In this document: one piece after another, positions 3,722 through 23,996 of the stretch
Layout: every line of letters starts with the position of its first letter
Position numbering within the stretch: the stretch's first letter is position 1
Source: a virus
Lineage: Duplodnaviria > Heunggongvirae > Uroviricota > Caudoviricetes
DNA length: 23,996 bases
Reading direction: 5' to 3' (one strand)
Virus record (IMG/VR): IMGVR_UViG_2713896899_000017
Program-made: the position numbers and the translations under genes
The notes under the pieces: generated by a model
Databases searched by the model: none
Told to the model about the DNA's origin: nothing
Seen by the model: the letters and a program-made list of their open reading frames with translations, nothing else

Positions 3722-3948
3722 TGGCTGATGCAATGGATCTTGTACAGCAGCGCGTTGAAGAAGAACGCCAGCGCCATATCCGTGCTGCCCGTGCCAAAAC
3801 GCCGGGCGTGTCCCGCGTGCTTTGCATTGAGTGTGAAGCGCCAATTCCGCCAGCACGCCGCCGCGCCATTCCAGGTGTGCAGCTTTGCATTACCTGTCAG
3901 GAAATCGCAGAGCTGAAAGGCAAACATTACAACGGAGGTGCTGTATGA
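3721..3948 (+). CDS. DksA/TraR-family C4 zinc-finger protein
   Basis: 75 aa with CIECEAPIPPARRRAIPGVQLCITC (C-x2-C-x17-C-x2-C), typical of phage TraR-like proteins; translationally coupled to the flanking genes. Confidence 0.75.
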   Translation: MADAMDLVQQRVEEERQRHIRAARAKTPGVSRVLCIECEAPIPPARRRAIPGVQLCITCQEIAELKGKHYNGGAV

Positions 3949-4802
3949 GCACCATCCTGAAATGGGCGGGAAATAAAACCGCCATTATGTCCGAACTGAA
4001 AAAACACCTTCCTGCTGGCCCGCGACTGGTTGAACCTTTCGCGGGTTCCTGTGCTGTGATGATGGAGACGGATTACCCCAGCTATCTGGTTGCGGATATT
4101 AATCCTGATTTAATCAACCTCTATAAAAAGGTTGCCGCTGATTGTGAATCGTTTATATCTCGCGCCAGAGTTTTATTTGAGATCGCAAACAGGGAGGTGG
4201 CTTATTACAACATAAGGCAGGAGTTTAATTACTCTACTGAAATTACTGATTTCATGAAAGCGGTATATTTCCTGTATCTCAATCGTCACGGTTACCGTGG
4301 TTTATGTCGCTATAACAAGAGCGGGCATTTCAACATTCCCTACGGTAATTATAAAAATCCGTATTTCCCTGAAAAAGAAATTCGCGCATTTGCAGAAAAA
4401 GCCCAGCGGGCAACGTTTATCTGCGCCAGCTTTGATGAAACGCTGGCGATGTTGAAGGCGGGGGATGTGGTGTATTGCGATCCGCCGTATGACGGCACGT
4501 TTTCCGGTTATCACACTGACGGCTTCACTGAAGATGACCAGTATCACCTGGCATCCGTTCTTGAACATCGGTCATCAGAAGGACATCCGGTCATTGTTTC
4601 TAACAGTGACACATCCCTGATCCGTTCGCTGTATCGCAATTTTACTCACCACTACATCAAGGCAAAACGCAACATCGGTGTGGCAGCTGGCGAGGGTAAA
4701 TCAGCAACAGAAATCATTGCTGTTTCCGGGCCGCGCTGCTGGGTGGGATTTGATTATTCGCGTGGCGTGGACAGTTCTGCCGTGTACGGAGTACGTGCAT
4801 GA
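3945..4802 (+). CDS. dam: DNA adenine methyltransferase (Dam-like N6-adenine MTase)
   Basis: [12 protein letters not shown]-terminus, FAGSCAV (AdoMet-binding FxGxG-like motif) and VYCDPPYDG (DPPY catalytic motif). GGAGGTG RBS; ATGA overlap with the upstream gene and with A. Confidence 0.85.
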
Positions 4803-7213
4803 GTCATGCCGATATGAACAACTGCTGCGGCTTTAACGAGGCTGCCGCAGCATTCTCATGGAACAGCCCGAAAAAGGCCATTAACCCTTATCTGGACCCG
4901 GCGGAAGTTGCGCCGGTTTCTGCGCTTTCAAACCTGATCACTCTGTACGCTGCCGATAACGAGCAGGAACAACTGCGCCGCGAGGCACTGAGTGATCAGG
5001 TCTGGGAGCGTTATTTCTTTAATGAATCCCGTGATCCTGTCCAGCGCGAAATGGAGCAGGATAAGCTAATTAGCCGGGCAAAGCTGGCGCATGAGCAGCA
5101 GCGTTTTAATCCAGACATGGTCATTCTGGCGGATGTCAACGCCCAGCCTTCCCATATCAGCAAGCCGCTGATGCAACGTATTAAATACTTCAGCAACCTG
5201 GGCAGGCCAAAGGCTTATTCCCGCTATTTGCGTGAGACGATTAAGCCATGCCTGGAACGACTGGAGCATGTACGCGACAGCCAGCTATCTGCATCTTTTC
5301 GTTTTATGGCAAGCCATGAAGGGCTGGACGGTCTGCTGATCCTGCCTGAAATGAGTCAGGATCAGGTGAAACGCCTGTCCACCCTTGTCGCTGCGCATAT
5401 GAGCATGTGTCTTGATGCCGCTTGTGGTGATTTGTACGCCTCCGATGATGTTAAGCCGGAAGAAATCCGCAAGACATGGGAAAAGGTGGCAGCAGAAACC
5501 CTGCGACTGGATGTCATACCGCCTGCGTTTGAGCAACTCCGCCGGAAAAGAAACCGCCGCAAACCTGTGCCCTATGAACTCATTCCGGGTTCGCTGGCGC
5601 GTATGCTGTGCGCCGACTGGTGGTATCGGAAATTATGGAAGATGCGTTGCGAATGGCGGGAAGAGCAGTTGCGTGCTGTCTGTCTGGTCAGCAAAAAAGC
5701 ATCTCCCTATGTCAGCTATGAAGCCGTGATGCATAAACGTGAGCAGCGCCGTAAGTCGCTGGAGTTTTTCCGTTCTCATGAACTGGTGAACGAAGACGGC
5801 GACACGCTGGACATGGAGGATGTGGTAAACGCCAGCAGCAGCAACCCTGCGCATCGCCGCAATGAGATGATGGCCTGTGTTAAAGGCCTGGAGCTTATCG
5901 CGGAAATGCGCGGTGACTGCGCCGTTTTCTACACCATCACCTGTCCGTCACGTTTCCATTCCACGCTAAATAACGGCAGGCCCAACCCGACCTGGACAAA
6001 TGCGACGGTAAGACAAAGCAGTGATTATCTGGTTGGCATGTTTGCTGCATTTCGTAAGGCGATGCACAAAGCCGGATTGCGCTGGTATGGCGTGCGGGTG
6101 GCTGAGCCGCATCATGACGGTACAGTTCACTGGCACCTGTTGTGTTTTATGCGCAAAAAAGATCGCCGCGCCATTACTGCTTTGTTGCGTAAGTTTGCCA
6201 TTCGTGAAGACCGCGAGGAGCTGGGGAATAACACGGGACCACGCTTTAAGTCTGAGTTGATTAACCCGCGCAAAGGAACGCCGACAAGCTACATCGCGAA
6301 ATATATCAGTAAGAACATTGACGGGCGTGGTCTGGCTGGCGAGATCAGCAAGGAAACGGGTAAATCCCTGCGTGATAACGCTGAATACGTGAATGCCTGG
6401 GCGTCTCTGCATCGTGTTCAGCAATTCCGCTTCTTTGGCATTCCGGGGCGTCAGGCTTACCGTGAACTGCGATTGCTGGCTGGTCAGGCGGCAAGGCAAC
6501 AGGGTGACAAAAAAGCAGGTGCGCCGGTACTGGATAACCCGCGGCTTGATGCAATCCTGGCTGCTGCTGATGCTGGTTGTTTTGCCACCTACATCATGAA
6601 GCAGGGCGGCGTACTGGTTCCCCGTAAATATCACCTCATCAGAACTGCTTATGAAATCAACGAAGAGCCGACCGCCTATGGCGATCACGGCATTCGTATT
6701 TATGGCATCTGGTCACCTATTGCAGAGGGCAAGATCTGCACTCATGCCGTGAAGTGGAAAATGGTTCGTAAGGCCGTTGACGTTCAGGAGGCGGCAGCCG
6801 ACCAGGGCGCTTGCGCCCCTTGGACTCGTGGCAATAACTGTCCCCTTGCTGAAAATTTGTACCAACAAGGGAAAGACAAATCAGCTGATGGAGATACCAG
6901 AACGGATATCACCCGCATGGATGACAAGGAGTTGCACGATTACCTGCACAGTATGAGCAAAAAAGAACGCCGGGAACTGGCAGCAAGGTTACGCCTGGTG
7001 AAACCGAAACGGCGTAAAGACTACAAACAGCGAATTACAGACCATCAGCGACTGCAGCTCGTGTATGAACTGAAGTCCAGGGGATTTGATGGCAGTGAGA
7101 AAGAGGTCGATTTACTGCTTCGCGGCGGCAGTATTCCGTCAGGAGCAGGCCTGCGTATCTTCTATCGGAACCAGCGTTTGCAGGAAGATGATAAGTGGCG
7201 GGATCTGTATTAA
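4799..7213 (+). CDS. A: Replication initiation endonuclease (P2 gpA-type rolling-circle initiator)
   Basis: 804-aa ORF with metal-binding [10 protein letters not shown] (HUH-like) and paired active-site tyrosines in YIAKYISKN, as in P2 A; follows the early genes as in P2/186. Confidence 0.85.
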
Positions 7214-7305
7214 TTACGCGGGTTAACAATTCGTGCTCTTAATAATACCAGGTATATCAGGCTGATGATCGTAAAAAAACGTTTTACATCAGTAAGATTA
7301 TTATA

Positions 7306-7325
7306 TACTGTAAATATAAACAGTG
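7306..7325. promoter_or_regulatory. LexA operator (SOS box) in front of the tum-like operon
   Basis: tACTGTaaatataaACAGtg has the CTGT-N8-ACAG LexA consensus with an AT-rich spacer; located about 40 nt upstream of the ATG at 7365. Confidence 0.75.
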
Positions 7326-7364
7326 GTTATGTATACAGTGTTACTTGGTGTCATAGGAGGAAAG

Positions 7365-7553
7365 ATGCAGGACTATTTTTTGGAGTCTTTGAAGCTCCAG
7401 CGCATTGATTTTTTTCTTAAGCTTGTAGCGGCTAGTGAGTGTAGTGATGAAGAGAAGGGGCTGGCCCTGCAGTGGGTTTCTGAACTGACAGATGAACTCA
7501 TGGCAAAAATCAGAACCCACGAATACAACCGCTCAATGGATGTCATCAGCTGA
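7365..7553 (+). CDS. Small SOS-controlled protein (62 aa), possible N-terminal Tum-like antirepressor part
   Basis: AGGAGG RBS at 7355-7360, ATG at 7365, directly downstream of the LexA box; sits where 186 tum lies (right of A). Function inferred from position only. Confidence 0.55.
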   Translation: MQDYFLESLKLQRIDFFLKLVAASECSDEEKGLALQWVSELTDELMAKIRTHEYNRSMDVIS

Positions 7554-7563
7554 GGTGACTTTT

Positions 7564-7797
7564 ATGCGCATTGAAATAATGATCGATAAAGAGCAGAAGA
7601 TTAGCCAGTCTACACTGGACGCCCTTGAATCCGAGCTTTACCGCAATCTGCGCCCCCTGTATCCCAAGACGGTAATTCGTATCCGCAAAGGTAGCTCTAA
7701 CGGTGTGGAACTGACCGGACTGCAACTGGACGAAGAAAGAAAACAAGTGATGAAAATTATGCAGAAGGTGTGGGAAGACGACAGCTGGCTGCATTAA
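7564..7797 (+). CDS. DinI-family protein (SOS regulator of RecA activity)
   Basis: MRIEIMIDKEQKISQSTLDALESELYRNL...KVWEDDSWLH resembles E. coli DinI (MRIEVTIAK...DALAGELSRR...ETWESADDWF). GAGGTGA RBS; immediately follows the previous ORF in another frame. Confidence 0.8.
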   Translation: MRIEIMIDKEQKISQSTLDALESELYRNLRPLYPKTVIRIRKGSSNGVELTGLQLDEERKQVMKIMQKVWEDDSWLH

Positions 7798-8067
7798 GAA
7801 ACGTTGCTGGCGTCTGAACTTGCTTCTGGCGTCAGCAAGGTTGAACAACGAGCTATGCGAGGCGTTAGTGTCAATTTGTTACCTTAACCACTATATATGC
7901 CAGGAAATTAACAGTTCTTAAGAAACCGCTTGCATGATCGAGCGCATTGAACTTAAGTTTAAGTAACGAAATCAACAGATGATATTGTTGTCTAAATTTT
8001 AAAGATAATCTGTTGAGGTTGTAGGCGTCGGAGTGTAGACTTCCGCGCCATGTTAAAAGGAGGAGTT

Positions 8068-8283
8068 ATGTCAAGCATCGCCGCATTTAGCCTGGGTAAC
8101 CCAGTTGAACGTCTGGCAAGGGTTCTTAAAGAGAACCAGGACAAACTCAATCTTAGTAAAGATGGTTTTGTGTCCGTAGACTTGTCTAACAAAAGAGCAA
8201 TGGATGCCATCAAGGCACAGATGGATAAGCTTGAAGGCATCAAAACGAGCACTGTAAAAGAGAAAACTAATAGAACCAGATAA
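8068..8283 (+). CDS. Small soluble protein (71 aa), first gene of a two-gene accessory operon
   Basis: Strong RBS AAGGAGGAG 3-4 nt before the ATG at 8068; no TM segment; stop overlaps the start of the next gene by 1 nt (TAATG). No recognisable family. Confidence 0.6.
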   Translation: MSSIAAFSLGNPVERLARVLKENQDKLNLSKDGFVSVDLSNKRAMDAIKAQMDKLEGIKTSTVKEKTNRTR

Positions 8284-9125
8284 TGGCAACATTACTTTTA
8301 GCAGTGATTTTGGTTAGTGGTTTTATTTATGTAAACCTATCACTTTCAACAAGATACCGATATAAGCGTTCCAACGGCTGGGACGCTTATTTTTTTGTGG
8401 CTGCCTGGGGTATCGTTTTTTTTCTCCTTGGCGGTTTTTTCACCTTTATTTTGAACGTCAGCGGAGGGTTTCGTTGGCTGGCGAATGCCTTGAATCTAAC
8501 ACCTGACAGTTTTAATGGCATGTTGTCTTCATCGAAAGACAAACTTCAAAGAATAAATGAAATCAAACAGATAGCATGGGTTATGATTTCAATTGTCCTC
8601 GCTGCGATTTCAGGTTTTGGAAATAAGTTACGCACATCACGTGGAGATCGTCGCTGGGATGCCTTAGCTAAAGCTGTGGGTAATAACGCTTTCGAATCAT
8701 TACTCATGGAAGCGTCCGCAAGACAGTTTCCGATCATAGCAACTCTGTCGTCTCGCAAAATCTATGTTGGTCTTGTTACTTGTCCGGCGTTAGAAAACGG
8801 GCTTTCAGAGCACCTTGAACTTCTCCCGATGTTAAGCGGATATCGGGATAAAGATGATCTAACGATTAGTATCACGACTAACTATCACCAACATTATCTT
8901 GATAGTGGTGTGATAAGTGGAATGTCTCGGCTTAATATCGAAGATTTCCGTGTGCTCATACCAAAAGATGAGGTTGAAACAATTTCGTTTTTTGATACTG
9001 AGACATATAACAAATTTAAAGAAAATGAAGCCAGGGATAGAAAGAACTGTCGAAAGATTGGTAGTAAAAGTGCATCTTCGCGCAGCAAGCGTGCAGCAGA
9101 TGCTGAGTCAAATGATCGTGCATGA
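8283..9125 (+). CDS. Membrane protein with three predicted TM helices and a roughly 165-aa soluble C-terminal domain ending in a basic tail; unknown function
   Basis: Hydrophobic segments TLLLAVILVSGFIYVNL, YFFVAAWGIVFFLLGGFFTFILNV and IAWVMISIVLAAISGFG; translationally coupled to the upstream small ORF; followed by a rho-independent terminator. Confidence 0.6.
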   Translation: MATLLLAVILVSGFIYVNLSLSTRYRYKRSNGWDAYFFVAAWGIVFFLLGGFFTFILNVSGGFRWLANALNLTPDSFNGMLSSSKDKLQRINEIKQIAWVMISIVLAAISGFGNKLRTSRGDRRWDALAKAVGNNAFESLLMEASARQFPIIATLSSRKIYVGLVTCPALENGLSEHLELLPMLSGYRDKDDLTISITTNYHQHYLDSGVISGMSRLNIEDFRVLIPKDEVETISFFDTETYNKFKENEARDRKNCRKIGSKSASSRSKRAADAESNDRA

Positions 9126-9173
9126 CTATGCTGCATGAGAACGCATGATCGTTTGAGGATCGTTTTTGCTAAG

Positions 9174-9197
9174 GCCCGCCAGAACTGGCGGGCTTTT
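9174..9197 (+). terminator. Rho-independent terminator of the two-gene operon
   Basis: GCCCGCCAG aa CTGGCGGGC perfect 9-bp GC-rich stem followed by TTTT. Confidence 0.75.
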
Positions 9198-9242
9198 GCG
9201 TAGATCATGCAACTGCATGAAAACCACTACATAAAGTGGGCA

Positions 9243-9261
9243 GGCGTGGCGGGGATACGAG
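9243..9261. other. Candidate cos (cohesive-end) site
   Basis: GGCGTGGCGGGGATACGAG: the first 13 nt match the P2/186 19-nt cohesive end as I remember it (P2 GGCGAGGCGGGGAAAGCAC, 186 GGCGTGGCGGGGAAAGCAT). Lies between A and Q, where cos sits in P2. Confidence 0.45.
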
Positions 9262-9328
9262 CGCGCGCAACGGGTTGTCATTCAAACTCCAATGCTATAA
9301 AACTGTGTAATACAAACAACTAAAGTAG

Positions 9329-11083
9329 GTGGCCTCAGTGGAACTGCAAGCAAATGCTCGAACCTTAACAAACGTGTTATCTGTAAATAAAAAATATATA
9401 GTCCCTAGATTCCAAAGAGAATATTCTTGGGGGAAGGAACAAGTAAGTGAACTTTGGCATGATATAGTTTCCAATATTCATTACCAGGAGGATGGGCAGT
9501 ATCAATATGATGAGTATTTCATCGGTGCTCTCGTTTTGGTCGGGCAGGAAACTAGCTCTGAGCTGATGATTGTAGATGGTCAACAACGTCTTACGACTCT
9601 TACTATATTGTTATCAGCATTATGTGATAAATTTAAGTTGATAAATGAGTTGGCTGTAGCTCAATCAATATATAATAATTATATATCTGGTATGGATGAC
9701 GATGGCAGACCTTTTTTTAAATTAGTTAATGAAACTCCTAAGCCATACTTTCAAAACAACATTCAGCATATTGATAAGAGAAATGAAGGACCGGAGTCCC
9801 TTGAAGAAAGAAACTTGCAATCTTCATATAATGATTTAACTGAGTATCTTTCAGAAGATAATCTTTGCCAGACATTAGGAGTAGATAGAGAGAAATTTAT
9901 CTACTTGGAAGCGTTGAAGGCTGTGCGGGATCAAGTTCTACGGTATCTGAAAGTGATTTATATTACAGTTAATGATGAAGATGAAGCTTATACAATCTTT
10001 GAAACTCTGAATGCTAGGGGATTAAACTTAAGTTATGTAGATCTTATAAAAAACAAATTATTTAAGAAACTGAATGGCACACATCCTGATGATGATGCAA
10101 AAACTAAATGGAATAAAATTAGGCAAATAATTGCTAGTCGTAATGGTGTCGGTTCTATCGAGACATTTATCCGTCATTGGTGGGTGTCAAAATATTCTTA
10201 TGTAAGTAGTGACACTCTTTATAAAGCTTTTCTGGATAAGTGGAAAAAAGGCGACATTGATGCTTCAGCGTTCATTGATGAGCTACTTTCAGATGCCGAG
10301 ATATATGTGAAAATATCATCGCCTACAGAACAGGATTTTCCTGAACTGGAAATGAAACCAGTTTATCGAGGTTTGCAGGCATTAAGGCTGTTTAACATAT
10401 CTCAGAATAAACCATTTTTGTTATCTTTATTTAAGGCAAGAGCAAGAGGAACGCTAAAACTTGTTGATATGAATAATGCAGTGCTGTCAATTGAACGCTT
10501 TCATTTTATGTTTAATGCTATTTGTTCATTGCGACCATCAGGTATTGAAAGTGCGTATGCTAAAGCTGCTAGGGCTTTAGTGGATGAAGGTTCTACTAAA
10601 GCTAGTAATAGACAAGTAATAAAGTCTTTGCTTGAAATGTTGGTGAAGAGAAAACCAGACATTAATATGTTTGTTGAAAAGTTTGTTATGCTTAAATTTT
10701 CAAATCAAGAGTTGAAAAATAAAAGGTTGATTCAGTACATTTTTAATAGACTTGAGTTACATCACATGAAAACGGGGGAGTATATGCCTGATTCATTAAC
10801 ATTAGAGCATATTCAGCCTCAGAGTGTGGGGGATTCTGAAGTATATAGCATGATAGGAAATTTATTACCACTTTCAAAAGAATTAAATGAAAAAGCTGGA
10901 AATAAGTCTGTTGTGGATAAGCTTGAAATTTATAAACAATCACAATATGCGCTAGTTAAAATTTTTATTGATGAATTTGAAAATAAATATCAAGGAGAAT
11001 GGACGCCCGATCATATGAGGTCAAGAGCTGCTGAACTAAGTATTTTATCGTATAATTCAGTATGGAAATTGGGGCGTGAGTAA
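9329..11083 (+). CDS. DUF262/DUF1524 two-domain protein (GmrSD-like type IV, modification-dependent restriction endonuclease family)
   Basis: N-terminal DUF262 signatures (PRFQREYSWG, IVDGQQRLTTL) and C-terminal His-Me/HNH-like region (LTLEHIQPQS ... NEKAGNKSVVDK). Strongly AT-rich. GTG start at 9329 per ORF track; an AGGTGG RBS favours the in-frame GTG at 9338. Confidence 0.7.
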   Translation: MASVELQANARTLTNVLSVNKKYIVPRFQREYSWGKEQVSELWHDIVSNIHYQEDGQYQYDEYFIGALVLVGQETSSELMIVDGQQRLTTLTILLSALCDKFKLINELAVAQSIYNNYISGMDDDGRPFFKLVNETPKPYFQNNIQHIDKRNEGPESLEERNLQSSYNDLTEYLSEDNLCQTLGVDREKFIYLEALKAVRDQVLRYLKVIYITVNDEDEAYTIFETLNARGLNLSYVDLIKNKLFKKLNGTHPDDDAKTKWNKIRQIIASRNGVGSIETFIRHWWVSKYSYVSSDTLYKAFLDKWKKGDIDASAFIDELLSDAEIYVKISSPTEQDFPELEMKPVYRGLQALRLFNISQNKPFLLSLFKARARGTLKLVDMNNAVLSIERFHFMFNAICSLRPSGIESAYAKAARALVDEGSTKASNRQVIKSLLEMLVKRKPDINMFVEKFVMLKFSNQELKNKRLIQYIFNRLELHHMKTGEYMPDSLTLEHIQPQSVGDSEVYSMIGNLLPLSKELNEKAGNKSVVDKLEIYKQSQYALVKIFIDEFENKYQGEWTPDHMRSRAAELSILSYNSVWKLGRE

Positions 11084-11110
11084 ATGCCGGGGGGGGGCCC
11101 AGCATATTTA

Positions 11111-12160
11111 TCAAAAAGAATCGTTTGTGAAATTTAGGGAGTAGGCATCAAAGCGTATTGCTTCTTCGCCTAGCCAATAGTTAAGTTCTTGTAGCTGTTT
11201 CTGCAGGGGCATCAGTTCGTTGCGGACAAAAACACGACTAGCCTTCTCCACATCACCAAAGCCCCCAACATTATTAGGCATTATCCCCATCATTTGCGGC
11301 GGCACACGGTGTGCCGCCATCATGTCGTCCCGGCTCACGTTCTTGATATTCAGAAACTCATCCTTCGCCGCGACTTCTGACAACGGGATAATCTGAAGCC
11401 CGTCCTTTTTGCCGTTAGGAGAGTACATAAACAGGTTGCGGAAGTTGCCTGGCCCTTTGGCACTTTTCATTGCATTGCGGAGGTTGTTCACATCCTCCTG
11501 GTTCTGCGCGGCATCGGTCATGTACATGATGAAGCCTGCATGACTGCCGTTAATATAATACTTCCGGCGGAACAGCGTGGCGGACTCGTTGAGCAGGGCT
11601 GATGGAATGGCAGAAAGATAACTTGGCAGGCCGTAGATCTCCTGGTTGATGTCCGGTTCCATCAGATGAAAAATGCTGCCTTTCGTGAACTGATACGGCT
11701 GGGTTGTCATACCGTATTGCACAAACCAGTAGGTATCCAGGTCTAACCCGCGTCGGGTGTATTTTGCCAGAGCAGGCTCAAGGGCGATAACTTCACCGAA
11801 GCGGTTCGTGCGTTTCTCCAGGTAGGCGTTACCAAATACCAGATAGTCCTGCACAAAACGTGAAAAAGCCTGCTGGCTGAGCAGCGGGTGAGGGATGTAG
11901 GTACTGGTCAGAATGTTGCATTTCACCGCAATTGGTGAGCTGTGATGCACGGCGGCGCGGAAGGTTCGTGCCAGTCCGTCAAAGCTGACGGGCGGCTCAT
12001 ACCAGCGGTCCATCTGTACGCATTCCACATAGTCCAGCAGTTCTCGGCGGTCCAGAACAGGAACGGGATCGCCGAAGCTGAATGCTTCGGCTGTAGTCTG
12101 GCTTTTAAGCTGGATCTGTTTCGTCGCCGCAGCGCGGTTCTTCTTACTCTTTCCCATCAA
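11111..12160 (-). CDS. Q: Portal protein (P2 gpQ family)
   Basis: 349 aa, convergent on cos/accessory region, ATGA-overlapped by P upstream; P2 Q-like sequence and position. Confidence 0.85.
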   Translation of the reverse strand: MMGKSKKNRAAATKQIQLKSQTTAEAFSFGDPVPVLDRRELLDYVECVQMDRWYEPPVSFDGLARTFRAAVHHSSPIAVKCNILTSTYIPHPLLSQQAFSRFVQDYLVFGNAYLEKRTNRFGEVIALEPALAKYTRRGLDLDTYWFVQYGMTTQPYQFTKGSIFHLMEPDINQEIYGLPSYLSAIPSALLNESATLFRRKYYINGSHAGFIMYMTDAAQNQEDVNNLRNAMKSAKGPGNFRNLFMYSPNGKKDGLQIIPLSEVAAKDEFLNIKNVSRDDMMAAHRVPPQMMGIMPNNVGGFGDVEKASRVFVRNELMPLQKQLQELNYWLGEEAIRFDAYSLNFTNDSF

Positions 12161-13923
12161 AAAATCTCCACAATATTGCTGGTATTGGCGGATTCGCCCT
12201 GCAGCGGTTCGTTAAACAATGCGTGCATCGTTGCCCAGGCCAGATCGGCGTGGCTGGCTTCTTCGCTGCGGCTGGCTTCATAGGTCGGGCGGTTGCCGCT
12301 GGCGGTGGTTGCGCGACGGATTGCCATGAATGACTGCGCAATGTCGGTGTGTCCGGCGTCAAACTCCAGACGGCGGTGGCTGATAATGTCGTAGGCCTTG
12401 AGTACCAGGGCGTTTTTAACGTTGGGGTTGTAGACAAACTCCCGGACGGCTGGAAAAAACGCTTTCACGTTCTCGTAAACACCGTGGCCGACACCTGTCG
12501 AGTCGATGCCGATGTAGGTCACGTTGTACTGCTCGGTCAGTTTTTTGATGGCGTCAGCCTGGGCGCGGAAGTCCATCCCGCGCCACTGGTGACGCTCAAG
12601 AATGCGGAACTTACCACCCGGCACGGCTGGCGGTGCCACCACCACGCATCCGGCACTGTCGCCGTTCTGCGTACCTTTTGCCGGGTCATAACCGATCCAC
12701 ACTTCGCGCCAGCCAAACGGGCGCAGGGCCAGTGCATGAAAGTCGGTCCAGACTTCCCAACTGTCCACCATGCACGCTTGCAGCTCGCTGAGCGGGAACA
12801 CGGACGCGAGATCGTCCACAAACTCACACATCAGCAGGTTCTGGTATTCGTCCGGGCTGTACTCCATGCGCAACTGGTCGAGGTCGAACAGGTTACAGCC
12901 GCCCCGCACCGCATCTTCCACGGTGACTATCTGGCGGTACTGCCCGTCTGCGCACAGCAGGCCGGGGGCCAGATTGCTGTGGGACAGGTCGATGTCCACC
13001 TTATCGGCTTTGTTGCGCCCTCGGTTGAACAGCGCACCGGACCAGAACGGATAAGCACTGTGTGTCAGACTGGATGGTGTGGAAAAATAGGTCTGTCGCC
13101 ATTTTTTGTGAATAGCCATACCGGAAGCCACTTTGCGCAGCTCCTGGAATTTCGGTATCCAGAAATATTCATCCAGATACAGGTTGCCGTGGTAACTCTG
13201 GGCCGTGCGGGCATTGGTGCCGAGGAAGTAAAGCGTGGCCCCGTTAGGAAGCACCATCGGATCACCTTTCAGCTCCACCTCGACTTCTTTGGCGAAATCG
13301 ATGATGTACTGCTTAAAGACGTGAGCCTGTGCCTTACTGGCAGAAAGGAAAATCTGGTTACGTCCGGTAAGCAGGGCGTCAATTAGGGCTTCACGGGCAA
13401 AATAGAAGGTCGCGCCGATCTGGCGTGACTTTAGCAGGTTGCGGATGCGGTTGGTTTTTCCGGCTTCCCACCAGTGGCGCTGGTAGTTGAACATGGAGGA
13501 ATGGAAAATTTCTTCCAGCTTCTCAATCTGTTCATCGGTGAAAACATTCTTTTCAGGCTGACGGCGCGGGCCTTTGTTGCGGTTGGCGACGTTAGGGTTT
13601 AAGTCGGCTTCGTTGCCGCCATTGTTAAACTTGCCGATCCGCGCGTGGCGCTCAGACTGGCGCGCCAGCAGGTCAATCTCTTTGAAATCTTTCCCTTCTT
13701 TGTGTTCCTTCATAATGAGCTGGCAGTAGCGTGCGGCGGTGGTGAGCTGCATCTGATCCAGCGGCCCATAGTCACCCCACTTGTCGCGTTTTTTCCAGCT
13801 GTGAACGGTTGCAACTTTCTCGCCCAGCATTTCAGCAATGCGGGCTACGCGGTATCCCTGAAAGTACAGCAGCATGGCCTGCCGACGGGGATCGAGATCT
13901 GCGGGTGTCAGTGTGGTGTTCAT
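12157..13923 (-). CDS. P: Terminase large (ATPase) subunit (P2 gpP family)
   Basis: 588 aa, divergent from O across the late promoter region; P2 P-like. Confidence 0.85.
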   Translation of the reverse strand: MNTTLTPADLDPRRQAMLLYFQGYRVARIAEMLGEKVATVHSWKKRDKWGDYGPLDQMQLTTAARYCQLIMKEHKEGKDFKEIDLLARQSERHARIGKFNNGGNEADLNPNVANRNKGPRRQPEKNVFTDEQIEKLEEIFHSSMFNYQRHWWEAGKTNRIRNLLKSRQIGATFYFAREALIDALLTGRNQIFLSASKAQAHVFKQYIIDFAKEVEVELKGDPMVLPNGATLYFLGTNARTAQSYHGNLYLDEYFWIPKFQELRKVASGMAIHKKWRQTYFSTPSSLTHSAYPFWSGALFNRGRNKADKVDIDLSHSNLAPGLLCADGQYRQIVTVEDAVRGGCNLFDLDQLRMEYSPDEYQNLLMCEFVDDLASVFPLSELQACMVDSWEVWTDFHALALRPFGWREVWIGYDPAKGTQNGDSAGCVVVAPPAVPGGKFRILERHQWRGMDFRAQADAIKKLTEQYNVTYIGIDSTGVGHGVYENVKAFFPAVREFVYNPNVKNALVLKAYDIISHRRLEFDAGHTDIAQSFMAIRRATTASGNRPTYEASRSEEASHADLAWATMHALFNEPLQGESANTSNIVEIF

Positions 13924-15977: not shown

Positions 15978-16628
15978 ATGAACCTGAGTCCCGCACGGCA
16001 GCATCGCCTGCGCGTTCAGGCTGAACAGGCCGCCCGCGAGGGCGGCAGTGTTCGCCACGCATCGGGCTATGACCTGATGCTGCTGCAACTGGCGGAAGAC
16101 CGCCGCCGTCTCAAGGGCGTTCAGTCCACGGTCAAAAAAGCGGAAATCAAGGTGGAGCTGCTGCCGAAGTACGCCGCCTGGGCAGAGGGTGTCCTGGCTG
16201 CCGGAGGCGCTCAACAGGATGACGTGCTGATGTACGTGATGCTGTGGCGCATTGATGCCGGAGATTATGCCGGAGCGCTGGAGATCGGGCGTCATGCCTT
16301 GCGTCATGGCTGGGTGATGCCGCTGGGTAACCGCAACGTGCAGACCGTGCTGGCAGAGGAAATGGCAGACGCCGCGCAGAGCGCAATGCTTGCCGCCACC
16401 GGCTTTGATGCCGATCTGTTGTTGCAGACGCTGGAGCTGACAGACGGTATGGATATGCCGGACCAGTCACGGGCGCGTCTGCATAAAGCGATTGGCGCTG
16501 TCCTGAGTGAAAACAATCCGGCGTCCGCCCTTAATCATCTCAACCATGCGTTACAGCTCGATCCCCGCTGTGGCGTGAAAAAAGACAAACAGCAGCTGGA
16601 GCGCAGACTGCGCAATGACAGCCGCTGA
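15978..16628 (+). CDS. M: Terminase small/endonuclease subunit (P2 gpM family)
   Basis: 216 aa immediately after N; P2 M-like. Confidence 0.8.
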   Translation: MNLSPARQHRLRVQAEQAAREGGSVRHASGYDLMLLQLAEDRRRLKGVQSTVKKAEIKVELLPKYAAWAEGVLAAGGAQQDDVLMYVMLWRIDAGDYAGALEIGRHALRHGWVMPLGNRNVQTVLAEEMADAAQSAMLAATGFDADLLLQTLELTDGMDMPDQSRARLHKAIGAVLSENNPASALNHLNHALQLDPRCGVKKDKQQLERRLRNDSR

Positions 16629-22938: not shown

Positions 22939-23996
22939 GCACAAAATTTTATACCCTGCTGACGGATATTGGCGCGGCGAAACTTGCCAGCGCCGCCGCG
23001 CTCGGTGTGCCTTTAAAAATTACCCATATGGCGGTCGGCGATGGCGGCGGAACATTACCAACGCCGGACGCAAAGCAGACAGCACTGGTAAATGAGAAAC
23101 GCCGGGCTGCGCTGAATATGCTCTATATCGACCCGCAGAACAGCAGCCAGATTATTGCTGAACAGGTGATCCCTGAAAACGAGGGCGGTTGGTGGATACG
23201 TGAAGTGGGCCTGTTTGATGAGTCCGGGGCATTGATTGTCGTGGGCAACTGCCCGGAAAGCTATAAGCCGCAACTGGCTGAAGGCAGCGGGCGTACCCAG
23301 ACCGTGCGTATGGTGTTGATTACCAGCAGCACGGACAATATCACCCTGAAAATCGACCCTGCCGTAGTGCTGGCTACCCGCAAGTATGTGGATGATAAGG
23401 TACTGGAGCTGAAGGTGTACGCGGATGATCAGATGGCAAAACATCTTGCCGCACCGGACCCGCATTCACAGTATGCACAGAAAGAAAGTCCTACGTTTAC
23501 CGGGACACCCAAAGCGCCAACGCCAGCGGCGGGGAATAACACCACGCAGGTTGCGACCACCGCGTTTGTTCAGGAGGCACTGACGGCTCTTATTAATGGT
23601 GCGCCAGCCACGCTGGACACGCTGAAAGAAATAGCCGTAGCCATTAACAATGATCCGAAATTCAGTACCACCATTAACAATGCGCTGGCACTGAAAGCGC
23701 CGCTGTCGAGTCCGGCACTCACCGGAACGCCAACAGCCCCCACGGCGGCGCAGTCGGTCAACAATACACAGATTGCCACTACGGCTTTTGTGAAATCGGC
23801 GATTGCGGCAATGGTGGGTTCTGCACCTGCGGCACTGGATACACTGAACGAACTGGCGGCGGCGCTGGGGAATGACCCGAACTTTGCCACGACAATGCTT
23901 AATGCACTGGCAGGTAAACAACCGCTGGACAATACGCTGACTAATTTGAGTGGAAAGGATGTTGCTGGTCTTCTCGCATACCTTGGTTTGGGAGAA
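22935..23996 (+). CDS. H: Tail fibre protein H (P2 gpH family), 5' partial; runs off the window end
   Basis: Open frame from the ATG at 22935 (ATGA overlap with I) to the window end without a stop; not in the supplied ORF track because it is unterminated. N-terminus MSTKFYTLLTDIGAAKLASAAALGVPLKITHMAVGDGGG is typical of P2-type tail fibres. Confidence 0.85.
   Translation, partial: MSTKFYTLLTDIGAAKLASAAALGVPLKITHMAVGDGGGTLPTPDAKQTALVNEKRRAALNMLYIDPQNSSQIIAEQVIPENEGGWWIREVGLFDESGALIVVGNCPESYKPQLAEGSGRTQTVRMVLITSSTDNITLKIDPAVVLATRKYVDDKVLELKVYADDQMAKHLAAPDPHSQYAQKESPTFTGTPKAPTPAAGNNTTQVATTAFVQEALTALINGAPATLDTLKEIAVAINNDPKFSTTINNALALKAPLSSPALTGTPTAPTAAQSVNNTQIATTAFVKSAIAAMVGSAPAALDTLNELAAALGNDPNFATTMLNALAGKQPLDNTLTNLSGKDVAGLLAYLGLGE
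23490..23930 (+). repeat. Tandem duplication (two units of about 220 nt / about 73 aa) inside tail-fibre gene H
   Basis: Two consecutive protein units share the pattern TGTP-APT-AA-NTTQ-ATTAFV ... APA-LDTL-E-A-A-NDP-F-TT-NALA-K-PL. Coordinates are approximate. Confidence 0.6.

Follow-up and report, generated by a model that had tools for sequence, protein, structure and literature searches.

A probable cos site dividing two separately exchanged accessory slots in a 186/Fels-2-like prophage

Cos and its neighbouring cargo in the P2 family

During packaging of P2 DNA the gpM/gpP terminase recognises cos, nicks the two strands 19 nt apart and encapsidates one unit genome. Both P2 and 186 have the stop codon of the portal gene Q ~190 bp from cos, with a terminator only between the two, and carry cargo (old/tin or tum/orf97) on one side of the site only. 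The satellite P4, which is without terminase and structural genes, has the other arrangement, with variable cargo (gop/beta/cII) that starts right after cos at the virion left end and no cargo on the other side. Despite these differences P2-family phages and P4 have in common a cos core of 55 bp (Ziermann & Calendar 1990, as quoted in passages of PMC9594776 and PMC5694545).

The DNA close to cos has long been associated with foreign genes. The interval from cosL to gpQ has been called a hotspot for such genes in P2-like genomes (Dodd & Egan 1996 and Nakayama 1999, as quoted in a passage of PMC5694545), and phiCTX and the Ralstonia phages phiRSA1 and phiRSY1 carry extra ORFs between cosL and their Q homologue (Askora 2017, PMC5694545). 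More recently a gpA-gpQ defence hotspot 'adjacent to' cos has been described in the relevant sections of Rousset et al. 2022 (PMC9122126) and Moura de Sousa et al. 2026 (PMC13586616), which between them count 1,650 arrangements in E. coli and note that numerous loci carry more than one system.

The ends of virion DNA have been mapped in a P2-like prophage of E. coli HS, hereafter HS phage 1, that was induced with mitomycin C (Zund et al. 2021, Microbiome 9:77, PMC8008629). Its cos is given in Suppl. Table 4 of that study as 5'-GGCGTGGCGGGGATACGAG-3' at NC_009800 926016-926034, by means of read-start analysis and PhageTerm. The same 19-mer is given as the cos of Salmonella phage SEN8 in PMC5427200, an assignment that was made by annotation. 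A further candidate source, PMC4837284, concerns unrelated Salmonella phages and was set aside.

It follows from these sources and from public records that nothing is new in the cos sequence, in its experimental mapping or in the presence of cargo on either side, all of them known from related phages. What the locus described here adds is modest, namely two slots with defined boundaries, their independent assortment, and a left part of the cos block that travels with the left cargo.

The prophage and its conserved cos block

The window, by which we mean the whole stretch of 23,996 nt that was analysed (IMG/VR record IMGVR_UViG_2713896899_000017), is on its sequence the left two-thirds of a 186/Fels-2-like (Peduoviridae) prophage, ending before the right att site. 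Its genes were mapped with Pfam, PHROGs and PADLOC scans. An integrase (1-1131) and a 186-type CI (1449-2024) are encoded on the minus strand and are followed by CII (2392-2907) and by a Dam methylase (3885-4802). The latter is a Dam-type D12-class N6-adenine methyltransferase within the early operon, its gene overlaps the start of gene A, and PADLOC assigns it as an 'orphan methyltransferase' (5e-111).

The accessory island has a conserved left anchor (4799..7797, +), identified from Pfam and the annotation of relatives, that consists of the replication protein gpA (4799-7213, +; Pfam Phage_GPA), a 62-aa ORF and a DinI/Tum-like protein (7564-7797, +; Pfam DinI). The mitomycin-inducible HS phage has an identical DinI-like protein, and the Fels-2 record describes the Fels-2 counterpart as similar to PsP3 TumB; the protein may be the SOS-controlled antirepressor of this 186-type CI phage. 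On the far side of the island are the portal protein gpQ (11111..12160, -; Pfam Phage_portal) and the large terminase gpP with its ATPase and nuclease (12157..13923, -; Pfam Terminase_5, Terminase_6N and Terminase_6C). The order after P is O, N, M and then the tail genes, with the small terminase gpM at 15978..16628 (+; PHROG 74, 1.9e-88). The window does not contain AACAAAAAACCCAT, the att core of HS phage 1, which places the integration site of this prophage elsewhere; the near-equal distance from int to cos in the two is shared gene layout only.

Between gpA and gpQ, at 9243..9261 (+), is the exact 19-nt sequence GGCGTGGCGGGGATACGAG, the equivalent of cosN, in a single copy. No second match to it was found within the window on either strand when up to 3 mismatches were allowed, and 100 dinucleotide shuffles also gave 0. 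For its first 13 nt, GGCGTGGCGGGGA, the copy at 9243 is the sole match in the window with fewer than 2 mismatches, and an exact 13-mer would be expected by chance ~0.001 times in 24 kb of both strands. A search with this 13-mer at up to 3 mismatches returned 12 hits against 6.4 expected, which is uninformative, and only the exact hit is counted. The first-pass annotation had described the 13 nt as common to P2 and 186; this holds for 186 (13/13 to U32222 nt 1-13), but for P2 it is one base off (12/13 to AF063097).

Across all 19 nt the sequence matches 186 at 15/19 positions and P2 and P4 at 14/19 each, and it matches Fels-2, nt 1-19 of Salmonella phage SEN8 and E. coli phage Cartapus at 19/19. 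The sequence has the form of a P2-family cohesive end, G+C-rich, 19 nt long and beginning GGCG(A/T)GGCGGGGA, and in 186 and P2, as here, the 19-nt 5' end starting GGCG(T/A)GGCGGGGA is followed by GCGCGC. The overhangs differ at positions 14, 16, 17 and 19, the window having ATACGAG and the two phages AAAGCAT/AAAGCAC. If the annotations of 186 and P2 and the PhageTerm mapping of HS phage 1 are carried over, the top strand would be nicked 5' of G9243 and the bottom strand after 9261.

It is apparent that the likeness to the P2 and 186 cos regions is a property of the whole region and not of the 13-mer alone. When the two genome ends of P2, of 186 and of P4 were joined before alignment with the window and Fels-2, a conserved block of 152-155 bp (~9117..9271, +) aligned to the cos regions of P2, 186, P4 and Fels-2, forming an island of homology between two variable slots, and in 87 phage records homology is confined to ~9117-9271. 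The block is asymmetric, with ~126 bp to the left of the cut and just the 19-mer and a further 7-10 bp to the right. The 55-bp core of P2-family phages and P4, from -29 to +26 relative to the first cohesive-end base, is found by anchored alignment at 9214..9268 (+). Aligned without gaps from this anchor it has 45/55 positions in common with 186, 41/55 with P2 and 42/55 with P4, which places 9214-9268 with the cores shared by the family, and conservation extends for another ~95 bp beyond the core on its left side.

The homologous elements are an upstream segment (TCATGCAACTGCAT-G/T-AAAACC...AAAGTGGGCA), the 19-mer and then GCGCGC, with a G+C hairpin and TGCAT motifs leftward. In 186 and P2 the same TGCAT...AAAACC stands just 5' of the cut with TGCAT repeats and a hairpin leftward of it, and the site likewise lies between the A side and Q. 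The nucleotides after the overhang (9262-9270) are CGCGCGCAA in the window, Fels-2, HS phage 1 and P4 (nt 20-28), so that P4 has both the core and this stretch in common with the window and Fels-2, and TGCGCGC(T/C) in P2 and 186. The CGCGCGCAA variant is common to elements with cargo directly after cos.

Within E. coli the cos block was found in 1236 of 5426 complete genomes. A cross-species scan, using one genome per species and the pattern GGGCRGGCGWGGCGGGGAWA, returned 120 loci (L009-L128), 26 of them without a match to P2/P4 marker proteins; ~20 of these 26 are chance matches that do not have the GCGCGC flank, several being in unrelated taxa (Streptomyces, Halogranum, soil MAGs), and the chance matches were left out of the conservation profile. 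When the 86 true cos loci were aligned on the cut, the information content stayed high from ~-125 to +26 and was ~0 from +27 onwards, with positions -5 to +14 and +21 to +26 set by the search pattern or filter and the independent evidence coming from the remaining positions.

Two elements stand out to the left of the cut. TGCATGA occurs in a cluster of 4 copies (at 9119, 9132 and 9214 on the plus strand and 9205-9211 on the minus strand; repeat families D1, I4, I5 and I7), with 4 of the 9 copies in the whole window falling in the 102-bp stretch 9119-9220. The TGCAT motifs are at the same positions in P2, 186, P4 and Fels-2 and are kept across species, and the TGCATGA repeats are candidate terminase-binding (cosB-like) elements. 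The second is a G+C-rich hairpin, GGCCCGCCAG-AA-CTGGCGGGC followed by TTTTGC (9168..9199, +; inverted repeat I1), that folds at -28.5 kcal/mol (z = -3.8) and has a hairpin at the same position in 186, P4 and Fels-2. It is probably the terminator of the left-slot operon and would then shield cos from incoming transcription, although a consensus terminator scan did not call the 9168-9199 hairpin, as its T-run is short and it falls under the threshold. Covariation between the hairpin arms left of the cut (CCGCCC/GGGCGG in P2, CCACT/AGTGG here) was considered and rejected, the arms being out of register when compared by eye. In an Rfam scan of 7200-11300 at E <= 1 there was one chance miRNA hit and no known RNA family overlapped the cos block.

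In several genomes PGAP places a pseudogene ('hypothetical protein, internal stop') across it, at the equivalent of 9135-9323 (2236-2424 of L132; also in L129, L130, L133 and L136), and a 'hypothetical protein' is annotated over it in phage records such as MLG42 and those of Klebsiella prophages.

By far the best reading is that 9243-9261 is the functional cos of this P2/186-like prophage, as the first-pass annotation had proposed, because an identical terminase and an identical core are found in a phage whose ends have been mapped. The 19-mer was confirmed in the HS genome region at exactly NC_009800 926016-926034. The gpP of the window is identical to that of HS phage 1 (588/588), gpM is 214/216 (99.1%) identical, and gpQ is 92.8% identical with a divergent C-terminal tail; all three are full length, and the packaging genes are intact. 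The cos blocks of the two agree at 141/152 positions (93%), with the 11 differences all left of -24 and the sequence from -24 to +28 fully identical. The location is also that of a P2-family cos, from the A side to the portal gene Q with the genes of the cognate gpP and gpM present. The SEN8 record begins with the 19-mer under the label 'putative cos site', and in Cartapus it is inside an annotated 'putative cos site', both being annotation-based assignments.

A different location for cos had been named beforehand, the 27-bp gap (11084..11110) that separates GmrSD from Q, two genes that converge here. This gap holds a G/C hairpin, ATGCCGGGGGGGGGCCCAGCAT, which is probably a bidirectional terminator, there is no match to the 13-mer or 19-mer near it, and no second cos-like site was found elsewhere in the window.

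It might be argued that the sequence is a non-functional relic, within a prophage that is defective or uses some other packaging site, and that its conservation reflects recent common descent only. The virion ends were after all mapped in a relative, HS phage 1, the window stops at 23996, and the 11 substitutions among the 152 positions of the block are situated, left of -24, where an inactivating change is possible. This is nevertheless quite unlikely. None of those substitutions falls in the invariant core from -24 to +26, the window has just this one cos-like site, and the full-length gpP, gpM and gpQ share 93-100% identity with their counterparts in an inducible phage whose cos is the same 19-mer. 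Furthermore, the block is kept across genera while both of its flanks turn over completely, which points to selection on the block itself.

Cargo on either side of cos

The left cargo slot (7868..9116, +), delimited from ORFs and breakpoints, corresponds to the virion right end and the old/tin position and contains a two-gene operon. The first gene encodes 71/77 aa (8050/8068-8283, +) and the second 280 aa (8283-9125, +), the latter predicted to be membrane-spanning at its N-terminus. They belong to PHROG 9843 and 3630 respectively, both families of unknown function, and neither a Pfam match nor a PADLOC defence-family match was obtained for the operon. It may be considered a candidate for an uncharacterised defence or exclusion system. 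The operon is widespread, and its position is the one occupied by the old/tin defence genes.

The right cargo slot (9272..11150, +), delimited by breakpoints, corresponds to the virion left end, from cos to Q, and contains a GmrSD-family type IV restriction gene (9329 or 9338-11083, +) recognised by Pfam and PADLOC. The predicted protein has the two domains that define this family, an N-terminal DUF262/GmrSD_N domain with the DGQQR motif (GmrSD_N 1e-38, residues 15-245; IVDGQQRLTT in the translation) and a C-terminal DUF1524/GmrSD_C His-Me nuclease domain (GmrSD_C 1.2e-11, residues 457-570), and it matches PADLOC HEC-06 at 3.8e-90. A role in type IV restriction or anti-phage defence is therefore predicted. 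The G+C content of the GmrSD segment is 31-35% against 50-60% for the phage backbone. In the 58-67 bp that separate the cos block from the GmrSD start (9272-9337) a consensus scan found no sigma-70-like promoter.

The limits of the slots come from a BLAST comparison of window positions 7200-12200 with eleven related loci. Homology runs through DinI to ~7796-7868 and is then lost until 9117-9119, from where it holds to 9268-9274 and is lost again until ~11150-11174, a point 40-63 bp into Q from its 3' end. Cargo is thus present on both sides of the 9117-9271 block, the two-gene operon to the left and GmrSD to the right, as had been suggested from the window alone. HS phage 1 is built in the same order, with A, the 62-aa ORF, DinI, left cargo, cos, right cargo, Q and P, and has the same 19-mer, the same positions +20 to +28 (CGCGCGCAA) and cargo on both sides of cos. 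It differs in the cargo itself, which is a 225-aa hypothetical protein on the left and a 463-aa hypothetical protein on the right, and also in its integration site and in the C-terminal tail of Q.

The contents of the two slots vary separately. An identical 581-aa GmrSD is in the cos-Q slot in all 10 of the 10 contexts that were read, and the left slot beside it has at least 8 states: empty, DUF6236, a 225-aa protein, 352-aa, 141-aa and DUF4145 proteins (each in reverse orientation), a three-gene set, and the operon of the window. Conversely, the same left operon is paired with at least 5 right contents (GmrSD, SEFIR, AAA-ATPase+HNH, PIN and hypothetical+TIR). The exact combination of left and right cargo in the window was found in 1 of 5426 complete E. 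coli genomes, that of WL7562 (NZ_CP128790), in which the prophage has 99.2% identity to window positions 7200-12200. The two independent insertion points put forward in the first-pass annotation are borne out by these many combinations together with the reproducible breakpoints.

Variable content between conserved gpA and gpQ in otherwise similar prophages is what characterises the published hotspot, and it is found here. The locus is the same, as are the kinds of defence gene, including DUF262/GmrSD types, and the extreme combinatorial diversity. In the sections of the surveys that deal with it, however, the gpA-gpQ hotspot is one locus, whereas here there are two slots, exchanged independently, with the cos block of ~155 bp between them. 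The treatment as a single hotspot, and the many loci in those sections with more than one system, would suit a single insertion point, at which an island of cargo was acquired as a unit with cos inside it or carried along, so that the two sides were not independent. Such an origin is very improbable given the 8 left states seen beside a single right state, the 5 right states seen beside a single left state, reproducible breaks in homology that flank the cos block on both sides, variants in the left part of the block that track the left cargo only, and the use of the left slot only by P2 and 186 and of the right slot only by P4.

The distribution across species is in keeping with separate slots. 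For 42 cross-species phage loci it was possible to place the C-terminus of Q, which is within ~240 bp of cos in 24/42, as in P2 and 186, and 593-3984 bp away in 18/42. The loci with an ATACGAG/ATACGAT overhang, all ten of which belong to these 18, have genes between cos and Q throughout (10/10), and among those with P2/186-type overhangs 24/32 have none. This interval holds one or two genes in Fels-2, SEN8, Cartapus and HS phage 1, and the Fels-2-like lineage seems to have the right slot as a constant trait. Among the P4-like satellites of the same sample psu was placed in 14 of 34 loci, always with its end 165-180 bp before cos and with variable cargo confined to the far side of the site, and the virion left end of P4 is the position of the GmrSD slot of the window. 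Three layouts can therefore be recognised in the family, with cargo to the left of cos only (P2, 186), to the right only (P4) or on both sides (the lineage of the window). The extra ORFs of phiCTX, phiRSA1 and phiRSY1 are different in their hosts and in their cargo (cytotoxin, Vgr-like and others), and the cos of these phages is related but distinct (GGTGAGGCGGGG...).

The outer boundary of the right slot is within Q itself. The last ~13-21 codons of Q (11111-11174) change along with the right-slot cargo, and the tails of the window and the HS phage differ. In a Pectobacterium prophage (L056, 1714-1896) a 60-codon remnant of the Q 3' end is present at the normal distance from cos and is followed by cargo and then by a complete Q; the remnant is the footprint of a cassette insertion through the 3' end of Q. 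Together with the tails that co-vary with cargo, it suggests that right-slot cassettes bring their own Q 3' end.

That the block owes its conservation to a small encoded protein or a pseudogene, rather than to a role as packaging signal, is most unlikely, since the 38-codon ORF (9207-9323) that might be cited for it alongside the PGAP pseudogene in several genomes and the hypothetical protein in several phage records is broken in relatives and crosses the slot boundary into cassette-specific DNA, conservation ends at +27 and not at an ORF boundary, and the conserved stretch corresponds to the non-coding cos that was defined by experiment in P2, 186 and P4. With conservation of non-coding DNA as strong as this, the pseudogene and protein calls across cos look like an annotation artefact.

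Packaging and possible cassette exchange at cos

Taken together, it is very probable that 9243-9261 is a cos that divides two separately exchanged accessory slots in a 186/Fels-2-like prophage. The two-gene operon ends (9125) 118 bp before the cut and the start codon of GmrSD is 86-95 bp after the first cohesive-end base. As the cut is inside an intergenic region of 203 bp (9126-9328), neither cargo would be severed by cos cleavage, which settles in the affirmative the question, raised with the original suggestion, of whether both are packaged intact. The geometry that was predicted at the same time, with the operon at the virion right end in the old/tin position and GmrSD at the left end before Q, also agrees with these positions.

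On the model of P2, gpM and gpP would recognise 9117-9271 after induction, probably by means of the TGCATGA repeats and the core left of the cut, and the terminase would make its nicks staggered by 19 nt so that one cos-to-cos genome is packaged. In the virion DNA the two-gene operon would be last, at the right end, and GmrSD would be first, at the left end, before Q. After injection the cohesive ends would anneal and circularise the genome, and the two slots would then be rejoined as what is seen as a single 'gpA-gpQ hotspot'. Each slot is exchanged separately, between a boundary in or at the cos core and a second one in conserved flanking sequence, which for the left slot falls directly behind DinI and for the right slot within the 3' end of Q.

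Linkage was compared in 22 related cos blocks (L129-L148, L005, which is Fels-2, and L008). Substitutions at -126 to -25 track the left cargo and not the right cargo, and one shared substitution pattern is found in the HS phage, Fels-2, L140 and L145 beside three different right cargos. The sequence from -24 to +26 is invariant except at one site, and sequence differences that go with the right cargo set in at +27 to +29. As the variants in the left part of the block track left cargo and the core is invariant, linkage between the slots breaks inside the ~50-bp core that holds the cut.

It is possible, though rather doubtful at present, that the cos cut is itself the joint at which cargo is reassorted, cos then being both a packaging signal and a site of cassette exchange. 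The linear genomes of co-resident P2-like phages with the same 19-nt overhang could anneal and be ligated end to end, which would link the right-end cassette of one phage to the left-end cassette of another, and one crossover elsewhere would restore a unit genome. Cohesive ends as substrates for recombination are raised in the relevant section of Rousset et al. 2022 (PMC9122126), where the idea is speculated upon and not shown. The linkage data are in keeping with this idea, and ordinary homologous recombination inside the 52-bp invariant core fits them equally well.

The finding leaves current understanding unchanged, but the correct placement of cos gives the true virion map, with the start of GmrSD ~90 bp from the left end and the end of the operon ~120 bp from the right, and both cargos would travel with the phage since neither is interrupted by packaging. 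Viewing the locus as two slots is useful in delimiting defence cassettes, for cos-based transduction vectors and in correcting the PGAP pseudogene across cos. Should exchange at the cos cut prove to be true, it would explain why the hotspots of P2-family phages and of P4 hug cos on either side.
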